Source: Myxococcales bacterium
Lineage (GTDB): Bacteria; Myxococcota_A; UBA9042; JABWCM01; BTVJ01
Direction of reading: 5' to 3'
Assembly (NCBI GenBank): GCA_045863395.1
Contig: BTVJ01000018.1
Coordinates: forward strand, 1-64,000
DNA length: 64,000 bases
In this document: in pieces, positions 1 to 13,220 of the stretch
Numbering within the stretch: position 1 is the first letter of the stretch
How the letters are laid out: every line of letters begins with the position of its first letter
The notes under the pieces: model-generated
Seen by the model: only the letters and a program-made list of their open reading frames with translations
Told to the model about the DNA's origin: nothing
Databases searched by the model: none
Position numbers and translations under genes: made by a program

Positions 1-60
1 CCGCCCCGCGGCCCCCCCCCACCACCCCCCCCCCCCCCTACACCCCCCCCCCCCCCCCCC
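1..60. repeat. Poly-C low-complexity tract at the window start
   Basis: Almost pure C runs; possibly a contig-end or sequencing artefact. Confidence 0.7.
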
Positions 61-130
61 GTCGGACGGGGGGCGCGCGGCGGACGGCGCGGCGCTCGCT
101 CTGCGCTCCGAGCGACGGTCCGCGGACCAA

Positions 131-162
131 CAAGGGACCAAGGGACCTAGGGCGCCAGGGAC
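131..162 (-). repeat. Tandem octamer GTCCCTTG x2 directly after the kinase-FGE stop codon, plus a degenerate copy before it
   Basis: + strand CAAGGGAC at 131-138 and 139-146, stop at 147-149, CAGGGAC at 156-162. Confidence 0.85.
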
Positions 163-2147
163 CTGGAGCAGCGGAAGCCGAGGACGCCGCCCGCGTAGGA
201 CGGGGCGTGGTAGACGCGATCGGACGCCCGCAGGTACGAGGCGACGTCGTAGAAGCCGCCGCCGCGCTTGACCCGGTCGGAGCCGCCTGACACCCACGCG
301 CTGCCGTCAACGGGAGCACCGTCGTAGCTCCCATGGTACGTGTCCTCCACCCACTCCCACACGTTCCCCGCCAGGTCGCACGCCCCCTGCGCGCTGTTCG
401 CGGCGCCCTTCGAGCACACATCCCACGTCGAGTCGCCACGCCCGCAGCCGTTGCCTCCACCGTCATTCATCACCGCGCGCGCGCACGTCGCCTTCTCAGG
501 GCCCCAAGGGTAGTCCTGGTCCCGGCCTCCGCTCCGCGCCGCATACTCCCACTCCGCCTCGCTCGGTAGACGCGCACCGGCCCATTCGCAGTACGTCTTC
601 GCCTGCTTCCAGTCCACGCAGTTCACCGGGTGATCCTCACGGCCCGATCTCCCCCAGTTGCAGCTCCCCCACGTGCCGGGAGCCGTACACGGGCCGGCCT
701 CCACGCACCGCCGGTAGTCTCCCACCGTCGTCTCGCTCTTCGCCAGCTCGAAGCCGCGGATCTGCACCACCCGGACCGGCCGCTCGTCCGAGTCGCCTGT
801 CGCCGACCCCATCTCATACGACCCGCTCGGCAGACGCACGTAGCCGTGGTTCGGGTCCCGAGATGAAACGCTCGCCGCGGCGCCCTCCCCGCGTCCGTGG
901 GATTGCAGCTCCAGGCCAGGTGCCTCGCCCGACGACCTATCCACGAGGTTCGTGCCAAGAAACAGTCCCCCCGCCACCACGACCACGGTCAACCCCACGA
1001 GCGCTGGCCGCGTCCAGTCGCGCCTCGGAATCGTTCGGGAAACCGGGCCGGGTACCACGTCCACCACGCGTGCAGGGGTGGGCTGCGGTGGAACGGGGGA
1101 CGGCGCCGGGACGACGTCGGGAGCCGGAGTGGGGCGCGGGGGAACCGGAAGCTGCTCCCCCCGCAGCGCCCGCTGGAAGTCCCGCGCGGTCGGGAACCGC
1201 TTCGCAGCATCCAAGCTCATCGCTCGCTCCACCGCGTCCGACACCGCCACCGAAACCCGCGCCACCTCCTTCAGCGGTGGCAGTCTCCGCCCTGCTTGCC
1301 GAAGAAGCCCATCCACCGGGGGCTCGCCGGCAAGCACCGTCCACAGCGTGGCACCGAGCGCGTACACGTCCGTCCGCTCGTCCTGGGGCGCGCGCGGGTC
1401 ATACTGCTCAGGCGGCGCATAGCCCACCGTCAGCACCTCCGAGAGCGATTGCGACGCGCTCCCCGTCGTGTACCGTGCCGCACCGAAGTCCAGCAGAACC
1501 ACCGGCCCGTCCTTGCTTACCATGATGTTCGCCGGCTTGATGTCGCGATGGATCAGCACCTTGTCCTGCTCGTCCCGCACCGAGTGCACCGCACACAGAC
1601 CGTCGAGCGCGGCGATGGCCACCGGGAGCGCGTCGCGCTCCTCAAGCGGCCTCATCACCCCGTCGTTTCCCGGCACCAGGAGCCCCTGCAGCGTCACCCC
1701 CTGAATGTACTCCATCACCATGTATCCGGTGCCGTTCTCCGCGAACACGTCGTAGATGGTCACGACGTTCGGGGCAGACCGGAGCTGCGAGACCATCTGC
1801 GCCTCACGGATGAAGCTCTCGAGTCCCAGCCGATACGCGTCCCCGTTGCCCCGCATCGGCTGCACCGTCACTCCGTCCCGGCTCCGTGTCGCTGTGCTCC
1901 GAGGATAGTACTCCTTGACCGCCACCCGCACCTTGAGCTGCAGGTCCCGCGCCAGGTAGGTGATGCCGAACCCACCCCGCCCCAGCTCCCGGCCCACGAG
2001 GTAGCGTTCCCGGACGATGCTCCCTGCCAGGAGCCGCATCGCGTCGTCCGGCCCGTCCCCCTCAGGGCGGTGCCCGCACCGCTGGCACAAGACGCCAGGA
2101 CCCGCCGTCTCGCAGCACTGGAAGCACACCCGCTCACGTCCGTTCAT
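147..2147 (-). CDS. Zn-ribbon + Ser/Thr protein kinase + TM + FGE-sulfatase (SUMF1/CLec-fold) domain protein
   Basis: N-terminal CFQCC..CQRC; kinase motifs LGRGGFG, VAVKE, HRDIKPAN, DFG, YAPPE; Pro-rich linker and TM; FGE motifs HPVNCVDW, RLPSEAEWEYAAR, DLAGNVWEW, RGG..GFRC. Start set to ATG 2147. Confidence 0.92.
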   Translation of the reverse strand: MNGRERVCFQCCETAGPGVLCQRCGHRPEGDGPDDAMRLLAGSIVRERYLVGRELGRGGFGITYLARDLQLKVRVAVKEYYPRSTATRSRDGVTVQPMRGNGDAYRLGLESFIREAQMVSQLRSAPNVVTIYDVFAENGTGYMVMEYIQGVTLQGLLVPGNDGVMRPLEERDALPVAIAALDGLCAVHSVRDEQDKVLIHRDIKPANIMVSKDGPVVLLDFGAARYTTGSASQSLSEVLTVGYAPPEQYDPRAPQDERTDVYALGATLWTVLAGEPPVDGLLRQAGRRLPPLKEVARVSVAVSDAVERAMSLDAAKRFPTARDFQRALRGEQLPVPPRPTPAPDVVPAPSPVPPQPTPARVVDVVPGPVSRTIPRRDWTRPALVGLTVVVVAGGLFLGTNLVDRSSGEAPGLELQSHGRGEGAAASVSSRDPNHGYVRLPSGSYEMGSATGDSDERPVRVVQIRGFELAKSETTVGDYRRCVEAGPCTAPGTWGSCNWGRSGREDHPVNCVDWKQAKTYCEWAGARLPSEAEWEYAARSGGRDQDYPWGPEKATCARAVMNDGGGNGCGRGDSTWDVCSKGAANSAQGACDLAGNVWEWVEDTYHGSYDGAPVDGSAWVSGGSDRVKRGGGFYDVASYLRASDRVYHAPSYAGGVLGFRCSRSLAP

Positions 2148-2332
2148 CGCATCACACTCCGCCCCTCCACAGGCCACCATCTCGCGTGGAACGATTGTAA
2201 CGCAGCACGGTGCGCCGCTGCGGCGTCTTGGCAGGGTCGAGCCGCGTCAAATTCTCGCGGAACTTCCGGTGAGCCGCGTCGTCGCCGTCGATGGCTCAGG
2301 TCATCCAGGCATCGACCCCTGTGAGGCCGTCC

Positions 2333-5752: not shown

Positions 5753-8700
5753 CTACGGCGCGCTCTTGAAGTTCACGCCCACCGTGTCGGCGAAGACGCG
5801 GGTGGAGGTCGTGCCGCACCCAGCGCCGTTGCAGGCGCAACCGCCCCACGCGTCGTCGTAGAGAACCAGCGTGTGGGAGCCGGTCCCGAGGCTCACCCCG
5901 CTGAAGATCGCGAGGTTTCCGCCCATGGACGCCTTCTGGTTCCCACTCGCCTGCTTCTTCGCGGATCCGGTCAGGATGTAGTGGACCTCCTGGCTCAGCT
6001 TGTCGGCACCGAAGCCGCAGGCGTTGGCCTGGTCTGGGATCCACGCGTTGATGTCGTAGGTGCCCGCCTTCTTGATGGTGAACGTCCACCGGGCGTTGTA
6101 GCCGCCGTAGGCCGTCGGACTCGACGTGGACGGCACGCCGCAGTTTGAGGCGAACACCCAGTATGGAAGTCCCCCGCTCTGACCCTTGTGCCAGGACGTG
6201 CTCGCCGTGGATGAGCATGACAGGGAGGCGCTCGACGGGGTGTTGCCGTAGTAGAGGCTCGGCTGAACGGCAAACGAGGCGGCGCCGCAGTCTGACGGGC
6301 ACGTCTTGGGGGTTTCTGTAGACTCGCACGTCCCGTTGCCGCACTTGTCACCACAGTTGGCGGAGGTCACGCAGGAGCCGCCGGAGCACGTCTGCGAGGT
6401 GCTGCAGGAGCCTGTGACCGTCCATGCGGAGAAGCTCCCCCAGGCGCCGTTGCATGACCCACTCGCGCCGGAACAGGTGCGTTTGCGAGTCCGGACGCCC
6501 TTGTCGCCACCGCACGCCGCTCCACTGGGGCAACCCACCTCGGTCTCCTCGTCACACACGTGGGTGGACGGCCGGAACCAGCAGCCGTCGCAGCAGGCGC
6601 CGCTGCTGCACTCGCACTTCGGGGCATCGCAGTCCGCGGTGTAGGTGCAGCTCGTCTTGCCTGGGGTACACTTCTCGGTGTCGCTGCACGCGTCGACGAC
6701 ACTCCAGTCGCTCCAGACGCCGTATGGGCCATCGCACGCAGCGCTCGCCCCCGAACAGAGCCGGTCGCGAGTCTTCTGTGCCACGCTCTGGCCACACCCC
6801 GTGCCCCACGGACACCCCACCTCGGACTCCGCCTTCGGGGCGCACACCGTGCCGGCATTCTTGAAGTTGCACCCATCGCAGCAGGGCCCGGACGTACACT
6901 GACATGGCGCCGAGGAGCAGCCCGCGGAGGTCGTGCAGCTCGCGGGGGAGCCACCGCACACCTGCGAAGGGCCGCAGTCCGCATGCAGCGTCCAGGGCTT
7001 CCAGGGGCCGTAGTCTCCGCTGCACGCGCTGGTCGTGCCGTTGCAGAGCCGGTCCCGCGTGTGGATGGCCACGTCGGCCCCACACCCCGTCCCCCAGGTG
7101 CAGGCGACCTCGCTGCTCGCGTCCACCTTGCACACGGTCCCGGCCGCCTTCAGGTCACAGCCGTCGCAGCACGGGCCGTTGCTGCACGTACACTGGGCCG
7201 CGCTGCAGGCGCTCGTCGCCTTGCAGGAGCCGCTCGACGCGCACGCCTTGGTCGCCGGGCAGCTCTCGGCGACCGTCCAGCCCCCCCAGGGCCCGAGGGT
7301 GCCCGTGCAGGACGCCGACTTCCCCGAGCAGTGACGGGGGCGGCGTTTCACGCCGACGTCATCGCCGCAGCCCGTGCCCCAAGGGCATCCCCACTCGGCG
7401 TCGGCCTCCTCCTCGCACACCTGGGTCGAGGGAGCGAACTTGCCCCCGTTGCAGCAGACACCCGACGTACACTCTGCGACCGGGTGCGCCACGCAGGCGC
7501 CGCCGGAGCAGCCGTACTGACAGGCCTGCGTCACTGTGCCATGGCACCCGTTTGCGCCCTTCACGCAGGAGACCAGCGAGCCGCCGCTGCAGGAGACTCC
7601 GGGCGAGCACGTGTCGGTACACCCGGGCTTCGCGCATGTCCCGCCGGCACCGCAGTCGGTTCCGGGAGGGCACTTGCAGTCTGCGCACGTGGCGCAGGTC
7701 TCGGGAGGCGTGCAGACCCCGTCGCCGCACGTCGAGGCGGGGGCGTCCGGCATGATCGTCTGCCGCACGATGGCGCCCGCGAGCACGTAGGTCTTGACGT
7801 AGTCTTCCGACAGCCACCCGTAGCCCGCCTCTCCCCACCCCGTGCCCCAGGAGTTCTTGATGCGAAAGAACCACCGGTCCTTGTTGGAGGCGTTCTTGCG
7901 CCGCTCGTAGCCGACGAGCAGCACGGCGTGGGCCCAGGCCGAGGGAGTGCCTCCCACCGGCAGCTCCACCGTGCCTGTGTTGGTCCACGCGGTCGCCACG
8001 TGATTCATCGCGAGGATGACGTTGCTGTCGTCGCCCTCCGCGAGGTGCGCCCGCAGCACCTCGCTGGCCGCCGGGTTGGGGATCGCCTGGAACTTCTTGA
8101 CTCCGTGGACCCGGTGGGCCTCCCACCCGCTCTTGGGAGAAGACGCGGTTGCGGGCCAGTACTCCTCTGTCGTGAGCTTCGTGGACTGAGCGGCAAGCAG
8201 TGCCGCCTGAAGGGAGAGATCCTCGTGGGAGGCGGCGAGGTGCGCCTCGCTGACGTCGGGGAAGCTGCCGGACTCGTAGTGTGTCACCGCTTCGAGGCCC
8301 GCCACTACAGCGTAGTCGACGCAGGTCTGCCCGACCTGCTCGCGTACCGGAGTCTGAAAGGGGGCGTGGTTGACCTTCTGCGGCAGCTCGGGCCCGAAGA
8401 CGGGCGGCTCTGCCCACCAGGAGTCGGGCAGGTCCCCCCACACCTGCGCGGAGGCCGGCACAAGCTGGCGCGGGATGCCGCCGACAATCACGATACCGGT
8501 GTCGTCGTCTACGGCAGGCGGCTCATACAGGCTCTCGTCCCCGACGGTGCCTCGCTCGCAGCCGCCCAGCACCAGCAGCGCGGCGAGGCCAGCGAGCAGA
8601 CGCTGGCGCACGAGGAGCCACCGCTGGCGGCGCCGCACGAACAGCAGGAGCCACAGCAGGGACGGAGCGGGGGACGCCGTGCCGCACCCGCCTGTCTGCT

Positions 8701-9823
8701 GCGTCTGATCGGCGGCCGCCGTCTGCGGAGCCTGCGCGGTGCCGGAGTCGCCCGCGGGCAGCGCCGTGGGGTCGTGGCCGACGGCGGTGGCAGGGGCGAT
8801 GCGGATGGCGTCCACGGCGAGGCGGGGACCCGATGAGCCGACATAGGGCTCGCCCGTGTTGTCGTTGAGACGTAGGGCAGCGCCCGGCGCGAACGAAAAG
8901 GTCCCGAGGGAGACCATCTCGCCCCGGTGCTTCGACTGGTCGACCTCCACCCACTGCTCACCGGGGAGCCACAGCTTGTACTTCGCCTTCTTCGATAGGT
9001 TCGGCAGGTCTGGCACGTAGATCTCGATGGTGTACTGGCCCGCCTGTTCGATGCCCAGGTACCACTTGGAGAAGCTGTCGGGCTGCCCCGCGTCGGTCGT
9101 GTAGGTCGTGAACGCGTGGCCGCCGGACCCCGCCGCGTCCCACCAGTACTTGCCGCCGCGCTCGACACAGGCGTCCGTCTCTTCGATGAAGGTCAGACCG
9201 GTCGATGAGACCGCACAGGGCTCCAAAGGCTTCTCGTGTGCCTTGATGAAGACCGAGGGCTCGAGATAGCTCGCCAGAATCGCGTCCTTCGCCTTCGGCC
9301 AGTGGCTAGGAGGGAGATCCTTGGTCCGTACCTCCAGATGCAGGTGGGCGCTGTACTCGTTGTCGTGACCCCTGCCGATGGTGCCGACCAGCGATCCGAC
9401 GGCGACCGTGTCGCCCTTCGAGACGGTCATCTCCTTCAGATGAGCGTACACGCTCCACACGTTCTCCCCGTTCGGCAGCTCGTGCTTCACGACGACGATG
9501 TTGCCCCAGCCCGTGCCGAAGGCCCCGGCCGCCGTGACCTCGCCGCTGCCGATGGCGTAGACGGGGTCGCCCTCGTCAGAGTTTCCACCACCGTTGCCGT
9601 TCCAGTCCTCGCCTGGGTGGTAGACTCCTGGCTTCTCATAGGCGAGCCACTTCCACCCCGCCGTCTTGTTGTACCCGCTGGCGGTCGGCGGGTTCAGCGG
9701 GAGCTGGAATCGATCCGCCGTCAGGGCTCCTTGGCGCGTAGCGAACGCGGGCTCCAGTGGACCTCCGCAGCCTGGAGAAGACACCCAGAGAGTCAAACAG
9801 AGCGCCGTCATGGTGAATCGCAT
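5753..9823 (-). CDS. Secreted multidomain protein: M23 peptidase + beta-sandwich + internal MYXO-CTERM-like motif + C1 (papain-like) cysteine protease + Cys-rich disintegrin-like repeats
   Basis: GGAGG RBS before ATG 9823; M23 motifs HPGED and HLH; C1 motifs EQVGQTC, HAVLLVGY, KNSWGTGWGEAGY; about four CxSGxCCDGC..CPWGTGCG repeats. Confidence 0.85.
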   Translation of the reverse strand: MRFTMTALCLTLWVSSPGCGGPLEPAFATRQGALTADRFQLPLNPPTASGYNKTAGWKWLAYEKPGVYHPGEDWNGNGGGNSDEGDPVYAIGSGEVTAAGAFGTGWGNIVVVKHELPNGENVWSVYAHLKEMTVSKGDTVAVGSLVGTIGRGHDNEYSAHLHLEVRTKDLPPSHWPKAKDAILASYLEPSVFIKAHEKPLEPCAVSSTGLTFIEETDACVERGGKYWWDAAGSGGHAFTTYTTDAGQPDSFSKWYLGIEQAGQYTIEIYVPDLPNLSKKAKYKLWLPGEQWVEVDQSKHRGEMVSLGTFSFAPGAALRLNDNTGEPYVGSSGPRLAVDAIRIAPATAVGHDPTALPAGDSGTAQAPQTAAADQTQQTGGCGTASPAPSLLWLLLFVRRRQRWLLVRQRLLAGLAALLVLGGCERGTVGDESLYEPPAVDDDTGIVIVGGIPRQLVPASAQVWGDLPDSWWAEPPVFGPELPQKVNHAPFQTPVREQVGQTCVDYAVVAGLEAVTHYESGSFPDVSEAHLAASHEDLSLQAALLAAQSTKLTTEEYWPATASSPKSGWEAHRVHGVKKFQAIPNPAASEVLRAHLAEGDDSNVILAMNHVATAWTNTGTVELPVGGTPSAWAHAVLLVGYERRKNASNKDRWFFRIKNSWGTGWGEAGYGWLSEDYVKTYVLAGAIVRQTIMPDAPASTCGDGVCTPPETCATCADCKCPPGTDCGAGGTCAKPGCTDTCSPGVSCSGGSLVSCVKGANGCHGTVTQACQYGCSGGACVAHPVAECTSGVCCNGGKFAPSTQVCEEEADAEWGCPWGTGCGDDVGVKRRPRHCSGKSASCTGTLGPWGGWTVAESCPATKACASSGSCKATSACSAAQCTCSNGPCCDGCDLKAAGTVCKVDASSEVACTWGTGCGADVAIHTRDRLCNGTTSACSGDYGPWKPWTLHADCGPSQVCGGSPASCTTSAGCSSAPCQCTSGPCCDGCNFKNAGTVCAPKAESEVGCPWGTGCGQSVAQKTRDRLCSGASAACDGPYGVWSDWSVVDACSDTEKCTPGKTSCTYTADCDAPKCECSSGACCDGCWFRPSTHVCDEETEVGCPSGAACGGDKGVRTRKRTCSGASGSCNGAWGSFSAWTVTGSCSTSQTCSGGSCVTSANCGDKCGNGTCESTETPKTCPSDCGAASFAVQPSLYYGNTPSSASLSCSSTASTSWHKGQSGGLPYWVFASNCGVPSTSSPTAYGGYNARWTFTIKKAGTYDINAWIPDQANACGFGADKLSQEVHYILTGSAKKQASGNQKASMGGNLAIFSGVSLGTGSHTLVLYDDAWGGCACNGAGCGTTSTRVFADTVGVNFKSAP

Positions 9824-9918
9824 CAGGTCCTCCCGTGCAGCTCGCGCAGGTCTCATCCCACCGGTCCCAAGAGTGCGCTGTGGTCCTTCTCTGACACGCC
9901 GGCTCTCCAGTCCAGAGG

Positions 9919-10536
9919 GTGAGCGTGAACCCACCAATCGAGTTCGTCAACCACCAATTTCCGAGGACCCTGTCGGGGTTCGGAGCCACGCAGGAGCGGC
10001 CTGGCCTCTACCGCCTGCCGCGGACGCTTGCTACTGTGATCGTCGCGGTGCATCGCCTGCCGCGGACGGTGGCGACGCTGCCCGCACGGCTGATGGGCCG
10101 CGGACGCGTGCTCCGCGCGGCACGGGCGGACCTGGCGGCGCTCCCGCCCCAGGCCCCGCTTGTGCTGCCACTGCGAGACCTGCTGGTCCGCTGGCGCATC
10201 GAGCTGCAGAGGGCCAAGGTGCTGACCCCCGACGAGGAGGAGTTCGTCATGGAGACCGAGAGCGCATACGACACCTGGCGAAAGCAGATCCTGCAGCAAG
10301 GGCGTGACGAGGGGCGCACCGAGGGGCGTACGGTGGGGCGCGCCGAAGGCGAAGTGGCAGCGGCGCTCCGAGTGCTTGCCGCGCGCTTCGGAGAAGTGCC
10401 TCCCGCTCTGGTGGCCAGGGCCCGCTCCATCACCGACCCCGTGGCCGCAAGCCGCCTCGTCGACATCGCCCTTCAGGCACCAACCCTCGCCGCGGTTTCC
10501 GCCGCGCTGGCGTCTGCACCTCCCAGTGACCACTGA
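9919..10536 (+). pseudogene. N-terminally truncated Rpn/DUF4351-like (YhgA/transposase_31-related) gene
   Basis: C-terminal QQGRDEGRTEGRTVGRAEG repeats and LAARFGEVP are typical of the family; the N-terminal PD-(D/E)XK nuclease part is not visible. Confidence 0.6.
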
Positions 10537-10825
10537 TCGCATGCCGCAGAGGGAGAAGAGCATGGCGCGATCCCTCCGTTGAGGAGCCGCTGCTGCTCCG
10601 TCACCTCGCCGTCCCGAGGGACGCTGCCGGAGCAGTCTGGACGACCGCCGCGTCAACGACGCCACGCCCCGGAAGTACCCCCGTCGGCGCGCTGCGCTGC
10701 CTCCGGGTGTGCTTCCGGGGCGTCGGGCTGGCTCGCGCTCCTACAGGGGCCGATTCCCGCCGTCTCTGCTCGGGATGACGTCGCCTTCACGCACGTGCGC
10801 CGAGCGCCGTGTGAGACTCGGCTGC

Positions 10826-10856
10826 CAAGGGATCAAGGGATCAAGTGTCAAGGGAT
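10826..10856 (-). repeat. Tandem octamer ATCCCTTG x3 spanning and following the second kinase-FGE stop codon
   Basis: + strand CAAGGGAT at 10826-10833, 10834-10841 and 10849-10856, with CAAGTGT between the last two. Confidence 0.85.
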
Positions 10857-13220
10857 CGACCTGGCGGCACGAAACCCCACGACGAAGTACCGCCCGGCGG
10901 GATCGTTCCTGACGCGGAGCGCCGCACGCACGTTGCGCGCGTCCGCGCCCCAGGAGCCGCCGCGGACCACGCGGTCCGCGCCCGTGGAGCTGCACACGGG
11001 ACCCCCGACGTCGGTCACCGGGCCGGTCTCGTACTCGGCGTAGCAGCCACCGGTCCACTCGAACACGTTGCCCAGCATGTCATACAGGCCATAGGCGTTC
11101 TTCGACTTCCCGCCCGCGGGCTGCGGGCCGCAGCGAGTCACCTGGGGGTTCGCCTTCCACGACCAATCGGAGCAGTCAACTGCACCATCGTAGGAGGGCG
11201 CAGCGTTGTCCACGTACCACGCAAGTCCGTCGAGCACACGCAGGTCGCCCCGCCACTCCCCAGACAGGTCACCCGCATACGTCGCGGTGGTCGTTTCCCC
11301 CCGCGCCGCATGCTCCCACTCCGCCTCCGTCGGCAGACGGTAGCCCTGGCAACCGAGGCCCTTGAACTTCACAGACGTGCAGGTGTAGTCTCCATGGCAG
11401 CCCCGCCCGCCGTTCTCGCTCGACGGGCAACCGCCTCCCAACGTCCCCGTACACCCGCCCAGGTCGTAACACTCCTCCACGCCCTCCGACCGCGACAGCG
11501 CGTTCAGGTAGTACAGCGCCTCCCACCACGACACCCGCTCCACCGGGCACCTGGCCCCACACCCCTTGAAATACGACGGGTTGCTCCCCATCAGCGACTC
11601 CCACTCCCCCTGCGTCACCTCCGTTGCCTTCAGATAGAACGCTCCTCGAAGCGTCACCGGGTGCTGCACCTCCTCGTCGAAACGACTCTCCTCCTTCGTC
11701 GTCCCCCCCGTCCCGTCCGGCGACCCCATCGTGAACGTCCCCTTCTCGATGCGCACGTAGCCCTTCGGTGGAGCCGGGTCCGCAGGGCGCTCCTCCGGGG
11801 GTTCCGGCGTCCTCTGTACCTGCTGCGCGGGCTCCGGCGGAGCTGGCAGACTCTCGGGCGGGCCAACTCTCTCGGCCGGCGCCGAAGATGCCTCGGCCGC
11901 TCCACTCCCCGACGAGTCGCCGCCGGTTCCAGAGGGCTGAGCCAACTTCGTACCCAGCAGAATCAGGCCTGCCCCCACGGCGATGACCGCGGACGCGACC
12001 AGCGCGACTCGCCCCCAGTCCCGGGCCGGCTGCGGATGCGGCGCGGCGCGGTCCGCCGCCTCCCGCCGCGCAGGCTCCGGTGCGGGACCGGGCCGCCGCT
12101 CGGCCAAACGCGCCGGCTCCGGGGATGAGGCCGGCCGATCAGGAGGCCACACGGGGCGCGGCGGAGGAGGCGGGTCCGGCACGAGCTCGGCGACCGGCAC
12201 GGGCGCCGGGGACGGAGGCACCACCCGGCGAATGGCCCCCTGGAGAGCCTGCTGAAAGGCCCGCGCGGTCGGGAACCGCTGCGCCGGGTCCAGGCTCATC
12301 GCACGCTCCACCGCGTCCGACACGCCCGTCGAGACCCGCGCCACCTCCTTCAGCGGTGGCAGCCGCCGCCCAGACTGGCGAACGAGCGCCTCAACCGGCG
12401 TCTCCCCGGCCAGCACCGTCCACAGCGTCGCGCCCAGGGCGTAGACGTCGGTCCGCTCGTCCTGCGGCGCGCGCCGGTCATACTGCTCCGGCGGCGCGTA
12501 CCCCTCCGTCACCACCTCCGACAAGGACTGCGACACGCTCCCGGTCGTGTACCGCGCCGCCCCGAAGTCCACCAACACCACCGGACCGTCACGGCTCACC
12601 ATGATGTTCGCCGGCTTGATGTCCCGGTGGATCAGCACCTTGTCCTGCTCTTCCCGCTTGGAATGCACCGCACGGAGGCCGTCCAGCACCGCGATGCCAA
12701 TGGGGACCGCCTGATCCTCCGGGAGCGGCCCCCTCCCCGCCTGGATGCTCTCGGACAGAAGCGCCTGCAACGTCACTCCCTGCACGTACTCCATCACCAT
12801 GTAGCCGGTGCCGTTCTCCTCGAAGAAGTCGTACACCGTCACCACGTTAGGCGCGCTCTCGAGCTGGGCCACCATCTCTGCCTCGCGGAGGAAGCACCGA
12901 AGCCCGATGCCGTAGGCGTCCGCGCCACCGCGCACTGGCTGCACCGTGACACCGTTGCGGCTCCTCGTCGCCGAACTCCGCGGGTAGTACTCCTTGATTG
13001 CCCGCCGCACCTTGAGCTTGAGGTGTCGCGCCAGGTACGTGATACCGAAGCCGCCCCAACCGAGGTCCCGCCCCACCAGGTACGTCCCCTGCAACACGGT
13101 CCCCATCTCGAGGCGGTTGGCGTCGTCGCTCCCGTCACCCCCGGGCGCCCGGCCGCATCGCTGGCACCGATCCCCCGGCCCAGCCGTCTGGCAGCACTGA
13201 AAGCACACTCTCTCACCCAT
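10848..13220 (-). CDS. Zn-ribbon + Ser/Thr protein kinase + TM + FGE-sulfatase (CLec-fold) domain protein, paralog of 147-2147
   Basis: LGWGGFG, HRDIKPAN, DFG, YAPPE; TM; TEVTQ, PVERVSW, RLPTEAEWEHAAR, YDMLGNVFEW, RVVRGGSW..VGFR. Confidence 0.92.
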   Translation of the reverse strand: MGERVCFQCCQTAGPGDRCQRCGRAPGGDGSDDANRLEMGTVLQGTYLVGRDLGWGGFGITYLARHLKLKVRRAIKEYYPRSSATRSRNGVTVQPVRGGADAYGIGLRCFLREAEMVAQLESAPNVVTVYDFFEENGTGYMVMEYVQGVTLQALLSESIQAGRGPLPEDQAVPIGIAVLDGLRAVHSKREEQDKVLIHRDIKPANIMVSRDGPVVLVDFGAARYTTGSVSQSLSEVVTEGYAPPEQYDRRAPQDERTDVYALGATLWTVLAGETPVEALVRQSGRRLPPLKEVARVSTGVSDAVERAMSLDPAQRFPTARAFQQALQGAIRRVVPPSPAPVPVAELVPDPPPPPRPVWPPDRPASSPEPARLAERRPGPAPEPARREAADRAAPHPQPARDWGRVALVASAVIAVGAGLILLGTKLAQPSGTGGDSSGSGAAEASSAPAERVGPPESLPAPPEPAQQVQRTPEPPEERPADPAPPKGYVRIEKGTFTMGSPDGTGGTTKEESRFDEEVQHPVTLRGAFYLKATEVTQGEWESLMGSNPSYFKGCGARCPVERVSWWEALYYLNALSRSEGVEECYDLGGCTGTLGGGCPSSENGGRGCHGDYTCTSVKFKGLGCQGYRLPTEAEWEHAARGETTTATYAGDLSGEWRGDLRVLDGLAWYVDNAAPSYDGAVDCSDWSWKANPQVTRCGPQPAGGKSKNAYGLYDMLGNVFEWTGGCYAEYETGPVTDVGGPVCSSTGADRVVRGGSWGADARNVRAALRVRNDPAGRYFVVGFRAARSIP

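Follow-up and report, generated by a model that had tools for sequence, protein, structure and literature searches.

A predicted receptor kinase gene of a Myxococcota-like bacterium ends in the variable repeat of a diversity-generating retroelement whose likely cognate cassette is broken

The first gene of the 64,000-nt stretch of DNA analysed here (the window) raises the question of whether a transmembrane Ser/Thr kinase can be the target of a diversity-generating retroelement (DGR) that does not lie beside it. In a DGR, reverse transcriptase (RT) and Avd copy the RNA of a template repeat (TR) with errors at adenines, and the product replaces the variable repeat (VR). An initial annotation had read the codons at 171-278 of the minus strand, which do form the end of the 677-aa open reading frame 147-2180, as a VR-like end of a receptor in a Myxococcota-like organism. 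The placement of the organism is supported by a genome of the same class, which encodes a protein labelled Myxococcota/Oligoflexales by NCBI. Contig C18, which begins with the window, belongs to an assembly of 8.77 Mb (71% GC, 186 contigs, 97% complete), and part of the sequence words of the kinase-CLec gene occurs in the RNA runs X6 and X11.

Table 1. Features at the start of the window (positions in the window; each row gives the basis of the assignment).
Feature	Position	Strand	Basis
Target gene, 677 aa: CxxC..CxxC N-terminus, Hanks-type Ser/Thr kinase, Pro-rich linker, predicted TM helix, FGE-type CLec	147..2180	-	ORF list, Pfam, hydropathy
Protein kinase domain, aa 61-290	1311..2000	-	Pfam Pkinase, motif inspection
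Single predicted TM helix, about aa 394-412	945..1001	-	Hydropathy; topology inferred
FGE-sulfatase/CLec domain, aa 445-672, 10 Cys after TM	165..848	-	Pfam, alignment, fold model
VR, 31 variable sites between 183 and 278, 16 codons changing amino acid (aa 635-666)	171..284	-	Paralog and strain comparison
IMH-like 3' end: invariant gene end, stop codon, pyrimidine-rich short repeats; near-identical in C162 and C32 genes	131..170	-	Comparison; function inferred from DGR anatomy
Downstream common element ending in GC-rich inverted repeat, 7-bp stem, 3-nt loop at 56-72	56..130	-	Comparison; three target contigs end there
CLec-VR-IMH-hairpin block common to C162 kinase gene	60..887	-	Alignment
Poly-C contig end	1..55	.	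Sequence

The target gene product is predicted to be a single-pass receptor Ser/Thr kinase with a cytoplasmic kinase and an extracytoplasmic CLec domain. Pfam detected both domains (Pkinase, E 1.8e-32; FGE-sulfatase, E 5e-48), and the kinase motifs are all intact (Gly-loop, VAVK, HRDxKPxN, DFG, PPE and DVYALG). Hydropathy alone identified one hydrophobic segment, whose best 19-residue window is at aa 395 (KD 2.03). This segment is preceded by three Arg, and the kinase is therefore predicted to lie inside and the CLec outside. Catalytic motifs and, by hydropathy, one TM segment between kinase and sensor domain are what characterises a Hanks-type receptor kinase. The suggestion that the VR faces outward on a transmembrane kinase agrees with these data, since Pfam and hydropathy place it at the predicted extracytoplasmic end.

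FGE/SUMF1 is the best match of the CLec domain in both sequence and fold. An AlphaFold model built from 36 sequences reached a pLDDT of 85.6 (44.6 from the single sequence). Its structural matches have the FGE fold, and TvpA, a DGR target, is among them (2y3c; E 1.7e-12, TMq 0.76). The FGE loop that bears the catalytic Cys aligns onto the suspected VR, and in this alignment the FGE catalytic Cys pair is absent from the C-terminal loop of the target. Thus the fold is that of FGE/SUMF1, but the VR loop lacks the catalytic Cys, and the domain would serve as a binding scaffold rather than as a formylglycine-generating enzyme.

High GC at third codon positions had been noted as a caveat to the VR-like reading. 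Within 171-284, codons ending in C or T number 30 of 38, compared with 42% in the preceding part of the gene (binomial p=4e-6), which is more than GC bias would give. Far stronger evidence for a VR than this excess comes from the differences between paralogs and between strains. The 3' end recurs in two other genes of the assembly, at about 89% and past the stop codon. One, on C162, is of the kinase-TM-FGE type, and the other, on C32, of the PEGA-FGE type. Mismatches between the C18 and C162 genes are distributed 7/9/25 over codon positions 1, 2 and 3 in 189 upstream codons, compared with 7/9/1 in the last 46. In these last 46 codons, 12 changed codons are non-synonymous and none is synonymous (p=1e-4), compared with 18 synonymous codons upstream. 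The remaining two pairs among the three genes display the same shift in codon position (p=0.001 and 0.004). With paralogs and sequencing runs pooled, 28 of the 31 variable sites fall on codon positions 1-2; of the three third-position sites (183, 237 and 267), an all-A template codon fits only 267. Furthermore, the 15 codons variable in paralogs and the 13 variable in runs share 11 among the 38 (p=7e-5).

The same sites correspond to adenines in related templates. We compared the VR with the 30 TRs that align to it gaplessly, out of 116 defined by their own TR-VR pairs in 190 related loci. Adenine is the majority letter at 24 of the 28 variable position-1/2 sites, compared with 6 of 48 invariant sites; the corresponding p value of 2e-10 overstates the significance because the 30 TRs are related to one another. 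Adenine specificity is read here from these relatives rather than from a TR-VR pair, because no cognate TR was seen. The gene therefore has a VR at the 3' end of a CLec-fold gene, with variation mainly at positions 1-2 of adenine-type codons, as DGR targets do. Together the paralog and strain variation and the TR-adenine match bear out the proposal of a DGR-like VR, and they indicate that the VR is real and that retrohoming from a template with errors at adenines has left its mark on about 16 codons.

A reading in which no DGR is involved would make the gene end an ordinary binding loop, shaped by diversifying selection and gene conversion between paralogs, with NNC codons supplied by high GC. 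It would fit the GC content of 71%, a converted-looking block common to both kinase genes and the failure to find a template; yet synonymous change is near-absent from the VR, the variable sites match TR adenines, an RT-Avd remnant begins at the same hairpin as the target contigs, and in a second, comparable kinase-FGE cluster the tail is invariant in 6/6 members that reach it. We consider this reading scarcely credible and already largely refuted.

Strain alleles were compared over 60-520 in four sequencing runs from four studies (X1, X2, X3 and X7), out of 24 runs that all consist of assembled contigs; these are filtered Logan contigs that drop rare variants. A window-type gene in X3 (record 17, covering 153-520) differs from the window at 20 sites, 19 of them within 183-278 and one at 374 (p=3e-9). 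Of the 19 VR differences, 17 fall on codon positions 1-2, so that the concentration at these positions, which the initial annotation had proposed to look for in mapped reads, is seen at strain level in contigs. The strain thus has one change in the 236 nt next to the VR and 19 in the VR itself; near-identity outside and a wholly different sequence inside speak for recent rewriting of the VR. The X7 allele is identical to that of X3, though the runs come from different studies. X1, which is possibly the source run, contains only the window allele in contigs that drop rare variants. Further VR alleles occur among the records listed for X2 and X3, and the VR contigs of X2 carry letters absent from all three alleles of the assembly (C18, C162 and C32).

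A cognate TR that differs from the VR only at adenines was not found in the assembly, the runs or the collections searched. Short-word BLASTN, the search that the initial annotation had called for, returned no such template from the assembly, and neither did an adenine-wildcard scan, searches with 36-nt pieces or a TR profile. None appeared in the contigs of X1, X2, X3 and X7 at a cut-off of 80%, an absence that is weak because the contigs are filtered and a TR would sit near this threshold. Degenerate motif scans gave 0 templates in metagenome, viral and genome contig collections, which may omit this or very near genomes; BLASTN of plasmids and phages gave no match; and a protein-collection search with allele fragments gave one unrelated protein. 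Among 60 relatives, none of the same family, the best VR match was 77%. The TR closest to the VR belongs to another family and differs from it at 11 non-A sites out of 114. A profile of TR plus spacer built from 19 TRs of the class recovered from the assembly only the C33 TR described below, the C47 remnant and FGE gene ends, and no second full TR. A spacer-only profile was uninformative because it gave 0 matches and missed the C33 TR too.

The assembly contains four RVT_1 matches (C33, C68, C78 and C64) and two bAvd matches (C33 and the C68 tail). Contig C68 starts inside the same hairpin at which the target contigs end. Its 261-aa ORF consists of an RVT_1 region, which breaks after FWGNV and has no YMDD, followed by a bAvd tail corresponding to the last third of Avd; a YhgA-like transposase gene comes after this RT-Avd fusion, and the contig has no TR. 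By Pfam, the gene after the remnant (C68:1014-2040) is YhgA/Rpn-like, and mutually similar ORFs lie at C162:200-1156 and, beyond a second kinase gene of the window, at 9919-10536. Single contigs span the RT-Avd junction in X1 (0 differences) and in X2 (28 differences and deletions of 7 and 3 nt), and because of this bridging the junction is not a chimera of this assembly alone. The junction in X2 has a depth like that of the X2 kinase gene. X3 and X7 have no C68 cover, which is not counted as absence of C68 from these strains. C68 is likely the wreck of the cognate cassette. An intact close copy of its RT was not found at a cut-off of 85% in the contigs of any of the 4 runs, and of the candidates scored in a search of 5.8 billion proteins, the intact RT nearest to it shows 64% identity.

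The only intact DGR-type set, at C33:45128-52670 on the plus strand, is non-cognate, and no intact cognate RT (YxDD) with Avd was detected. This DGR contains a target (a long FGE protein), HRDC, Avd, an RT with YMDD and a TR about 1.5 kb past the RT stop codon, with other sequence between. The RT matches on C78 and C64 lie in long reading frames that are 26% identical to the RT of C33. The absence of a local retroelement that the initial annotation had noted thus applies to the window, but not to the genome, which holds an RT-Avd remnant at the same hairpin and the intact non-cognate DGR.

The 3' end of the gene is conserved and a perfect inverted repeat follows the VR; they are candidates for the IMH and the hairpin of a DGR target, and a TR would be needed to set the limits of IMH and IMH*. 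About 100 nt separate the hairpin stem from the VR, whereas in BPP-1 the hairpin follows the VR directly. There a hairpin downstream of the VR is reported to be required and, together with the IMH, to suffice to target a foreign gene (PMC3240598). Because the region 60-887 is 91.7% identical to the C162 kinase gene, whereas the kinase halves are only 73% identical, the CLec-VR-IMH-hairpin block is likely a cassette that was grafted or converted as a unit. A degenerate copy of the IMH-like end and hairpin lies at C2:199043-199211 (plus strand) with no CLec gene in front.

Contig C18 ends 146 nt past the target stop codon. Ordinary sequence continues beyond the same hairpin on C68, and the poly-C end is likely a sequencing or assembly artefact at the hairpin. 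Three target contigs end at the hairpin (C18, C32 and C162) and are balanced by three continuation ends (C68, the start of C162 and the end of C19), so that no extra contig is needed there. The repeat itself leaves the joins ambiguous in the assembly; a 210-nt contig of X3 runs from a kinase VR end through the hairpin into a continuation of the C162/C19 type without RT. Because this contig leads from the VR end into RT-free sequence, the kinase genes are probably remote targets and, by elimination, C68 probably follows the C32 gene. Thus, of the proposal that the receptor is hypermutated in trans, the remote position is probably right, but hypermutation at present is not borne out, with no template found and a C68 RT that lacks its catalytic half.

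Based on these results, we favor the explanation, at a probability of roughly 0.62, that the target is a remote VR, likely rewritten in trans by a multi-target DGR of which this assembly contains a broken RT-Avd copy and no template, so that the present allele is frozen. The original cassette may have had the order target-RT-Avd-TR behind the PEGA-CLec gene on C32. The CLec-VR-IMH-hairpin block would have been copied onto two kinase stems, producing remote targets, and error-prone reverse transcription of TR adenines followed by retrohoming would have rewritten about 16 codons. A deletion would then have fused RT to Avd, with loss of the TR, and frozen the allele. Putatively, ligand binding at the variable surface would switch the cytoplasmic kinase.

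The X2 alleles bear directly on this explanation. X2 has the same broken junction together with different VR alleles, a combination for which a model of alleles simply frozen since the break would need recombination or a second source. One account is that something outside the bin rewrote the tips after the break, the other that strains exchanged segments; because X2 combines the broken RT with different alleles, a template may lie outside the bin. The target could then still be active, served by an intact cognate RT-Avd-TR on an unbinned contig or on a mobile element in the cells or the population. The X3 strain with its wholly different VR, the intact IMH-like end and hairpin and the related RT found in 28 of 107 genomes of the class are consistent with activity, and the expected likeness of the TR (about 82%, an estimate) is close to the cut-off of the run comparison. 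However, neither the runs nor the protein search yielded a close intact relative of the C68 RT, X3 and X7 carry one allele despite their different studies, and X1 displays the window allele only, though in contigs that drop rare variants. We regard continued activity as a serious but unlikely alternative.

A second source could also be the intact DGR of the same genome, if its RT, Avd and HRDC served in trans either a stand-alone cognate TR RNA or the C33 TR. All 12 of the 12 TR-VR mismatches of the C33 DGR are at A, and on C47 a TR piece persists beside its VR without an RT. The C33 TR was, however, rejected as the donor for the kinase tips: it matches cleanly only its own target and has 27-30 non-A mismatches to the three VRs. 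The profile search of the assembly gave no second full TR for the RNA version, and the C33 and C68 RTs are 36% identical. In a 489-nt contig of X2, a stretch of 127 letters takes the place of C68 340-996. This insert is about the length of a TR, but the contig is not among the VR-matching records, where other records account for the depth, and 127 nt is also the length of C68 870-996. We judge service by the C33 DGR to be very unlikely, and the broken multi-target DGR with a frozen allele remains our preferred explanation.

Additional loci in the genome resemble parts of DGRs. A second kinase-FGE gene at 10848-13220 of the window (minus strand) is 78% identical to the target in the nucleotides of its kinase region and 27% identical in the amino acids of its CLec. 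It has similar pyrimidine-rich repeats at its end and then a 16-nt motif that recurs past the hairpin on C68, C162 and C19. The assembly gave no TR for this gene, which is probably the target of another lost DGR. At C47:~10480-11590 (minus strand), an FGE pseudogene with an in-frame stop precedes, by about 200 nt, the 3' half of a TR, and this half and the VR of the pseudogene disagree mostly at A. The contig has no RT or Avd match, and the locus is a third, decayed DGR. At C32:~70050-70140 (minus strand), a kinase-like frame continues as a short stub that resembles a VR or TR and then as a C47-type 3' end, possibly a failed grafting event. The window also encodes, at 5753-9937 (minus strand), a 1394-aa protein with an M23 peptidase domain, Golvesin-C, a C1-like peptidase and Cys-rich repeats.

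Relatives of the same class provide a comparison. The RT-Avd-TR order occurs in 36 of the 190 related loci, and since class relatives mostly have HRDC-Avd-RT-TR, the original order of the C68 cassette is uncertain. In one genome of the class (G027, 3.1 Mb), three targets on other contigs correspond to a single TR, from which each differs at 0-1 non-A and 15-19 A sites. Its kinase target is no positive control because the TR match is unclean (20 A-site and 13 non-A mismatches in 122 nt). In a kinase-FGE cluster of this lineage, with 15 of its 18 members listed, 6 members stay within 3 differences of the representative up to the tail but show 10-15 in the last 41-44 residues, and the 12 sequences that reach the end have five distinct tails. 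Because cluster tails vary and the G027 kinase VR matches its TR imperfectly, tail-variable receptor kinases appear to recur in the class, often drifting from their template. The tail of one cluster member (P0235) has a first half identical to P0241 and a second half identical to P0251, and looks like partial retrohoming or a crossover. G027 also contains 11 or more gene ends that resemble a VR and have 0-15 non-A mismatches, so that its targets show all degrees of drift, and on its contig C114 (L266) a second TR copy, of the 5' half, about 2 kb downstream of the full TR. In G033, contig C27 carries a tandem pair of DGR cassettes that are near-identical and lie 4.7 kb from each other (L204 and L224).

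The system is of a type already known, a DGR-diversified kinase-CLec remote target, and it works like one, but the cognate TR and an intact RT are missing in the assembly. The accessible text on cyanobacterial DGRs describes kinase-CLec targets and counts 76 remote targets; remnants of targets (all3226) and a degraded cassette with RT only are also reported (PMC7517822). As in the target, a Hanks kinase is grafted there to a C-terminal CLec with VR, and paralogs are dispersed. In contrast to most of these variable proteins, the target has a predicted TM segment that separates the kinase from the CLec, its outer domain is rich in Cys, and it belongs to another phylum. Most cyanobacterial variable proteins are predicted to be cytosolic; TM or signal regions are given for 4 internal and 9 remote ones, and the supplement may list TM kinases (PMC7517822). 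Additionally, the likely cognate cassette of the target survives as an RT-Avd fusion, unlike the RT-only cyanobacterial one.

Similarly, the available part of Wu et al. 2018 describes a kinase target category (b12), remote targets and the TvpA-type FGE-sulfatase CLec of Treponema denticola (PMC5758913). TvpA-type targets share with the window gene the FGE-type CLec fold, and one TR may have several remote targets. The A-to-N-only rule given there for non-adjacent targets is not satisfied by the window gene because it has no cognate TR, and the RT-Avd-TR order proposed for C68 is not among the B1-B3 cores of that text. The putative antigen sensors of multicellular bacteria in Clade-5 DGRs resemble the target in having CLec variation at codon positions 1-2 and, in some, TM segments that place the CLec in the periplasm (PMC10907252). 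That study reports several DGR classes per genome and includes Pkinase in a domain legend, and the string 'myxococc' occurs 0 times in its main text. A literature search gave no paper naming both 'diversity-generating retroelement' and 'Myxococcota'.

We also consider a broader hypothesis, although it is improbable, in which a portable CLec-VR-IMH-hairpin cassette on receptor-kinase stems forms an anticipatory repertoire of surface receptors, with rewriting that outlived its own RT through a free-standing template and the RT of another DGR, or through a cassette that travels in the population. If rewriting does continue without the cognate RT, this would be cross-service between DGRs, which was not found described in the portions of the literature available to us. 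Taken together, our results extend DGR-diversified kinase-CLec receptors to a Myxococcota-like class, and they place several DGR life stages in one genome: an intact element, an RT-Avd wreck with three leftover targets, and a pseudogene with half a template.
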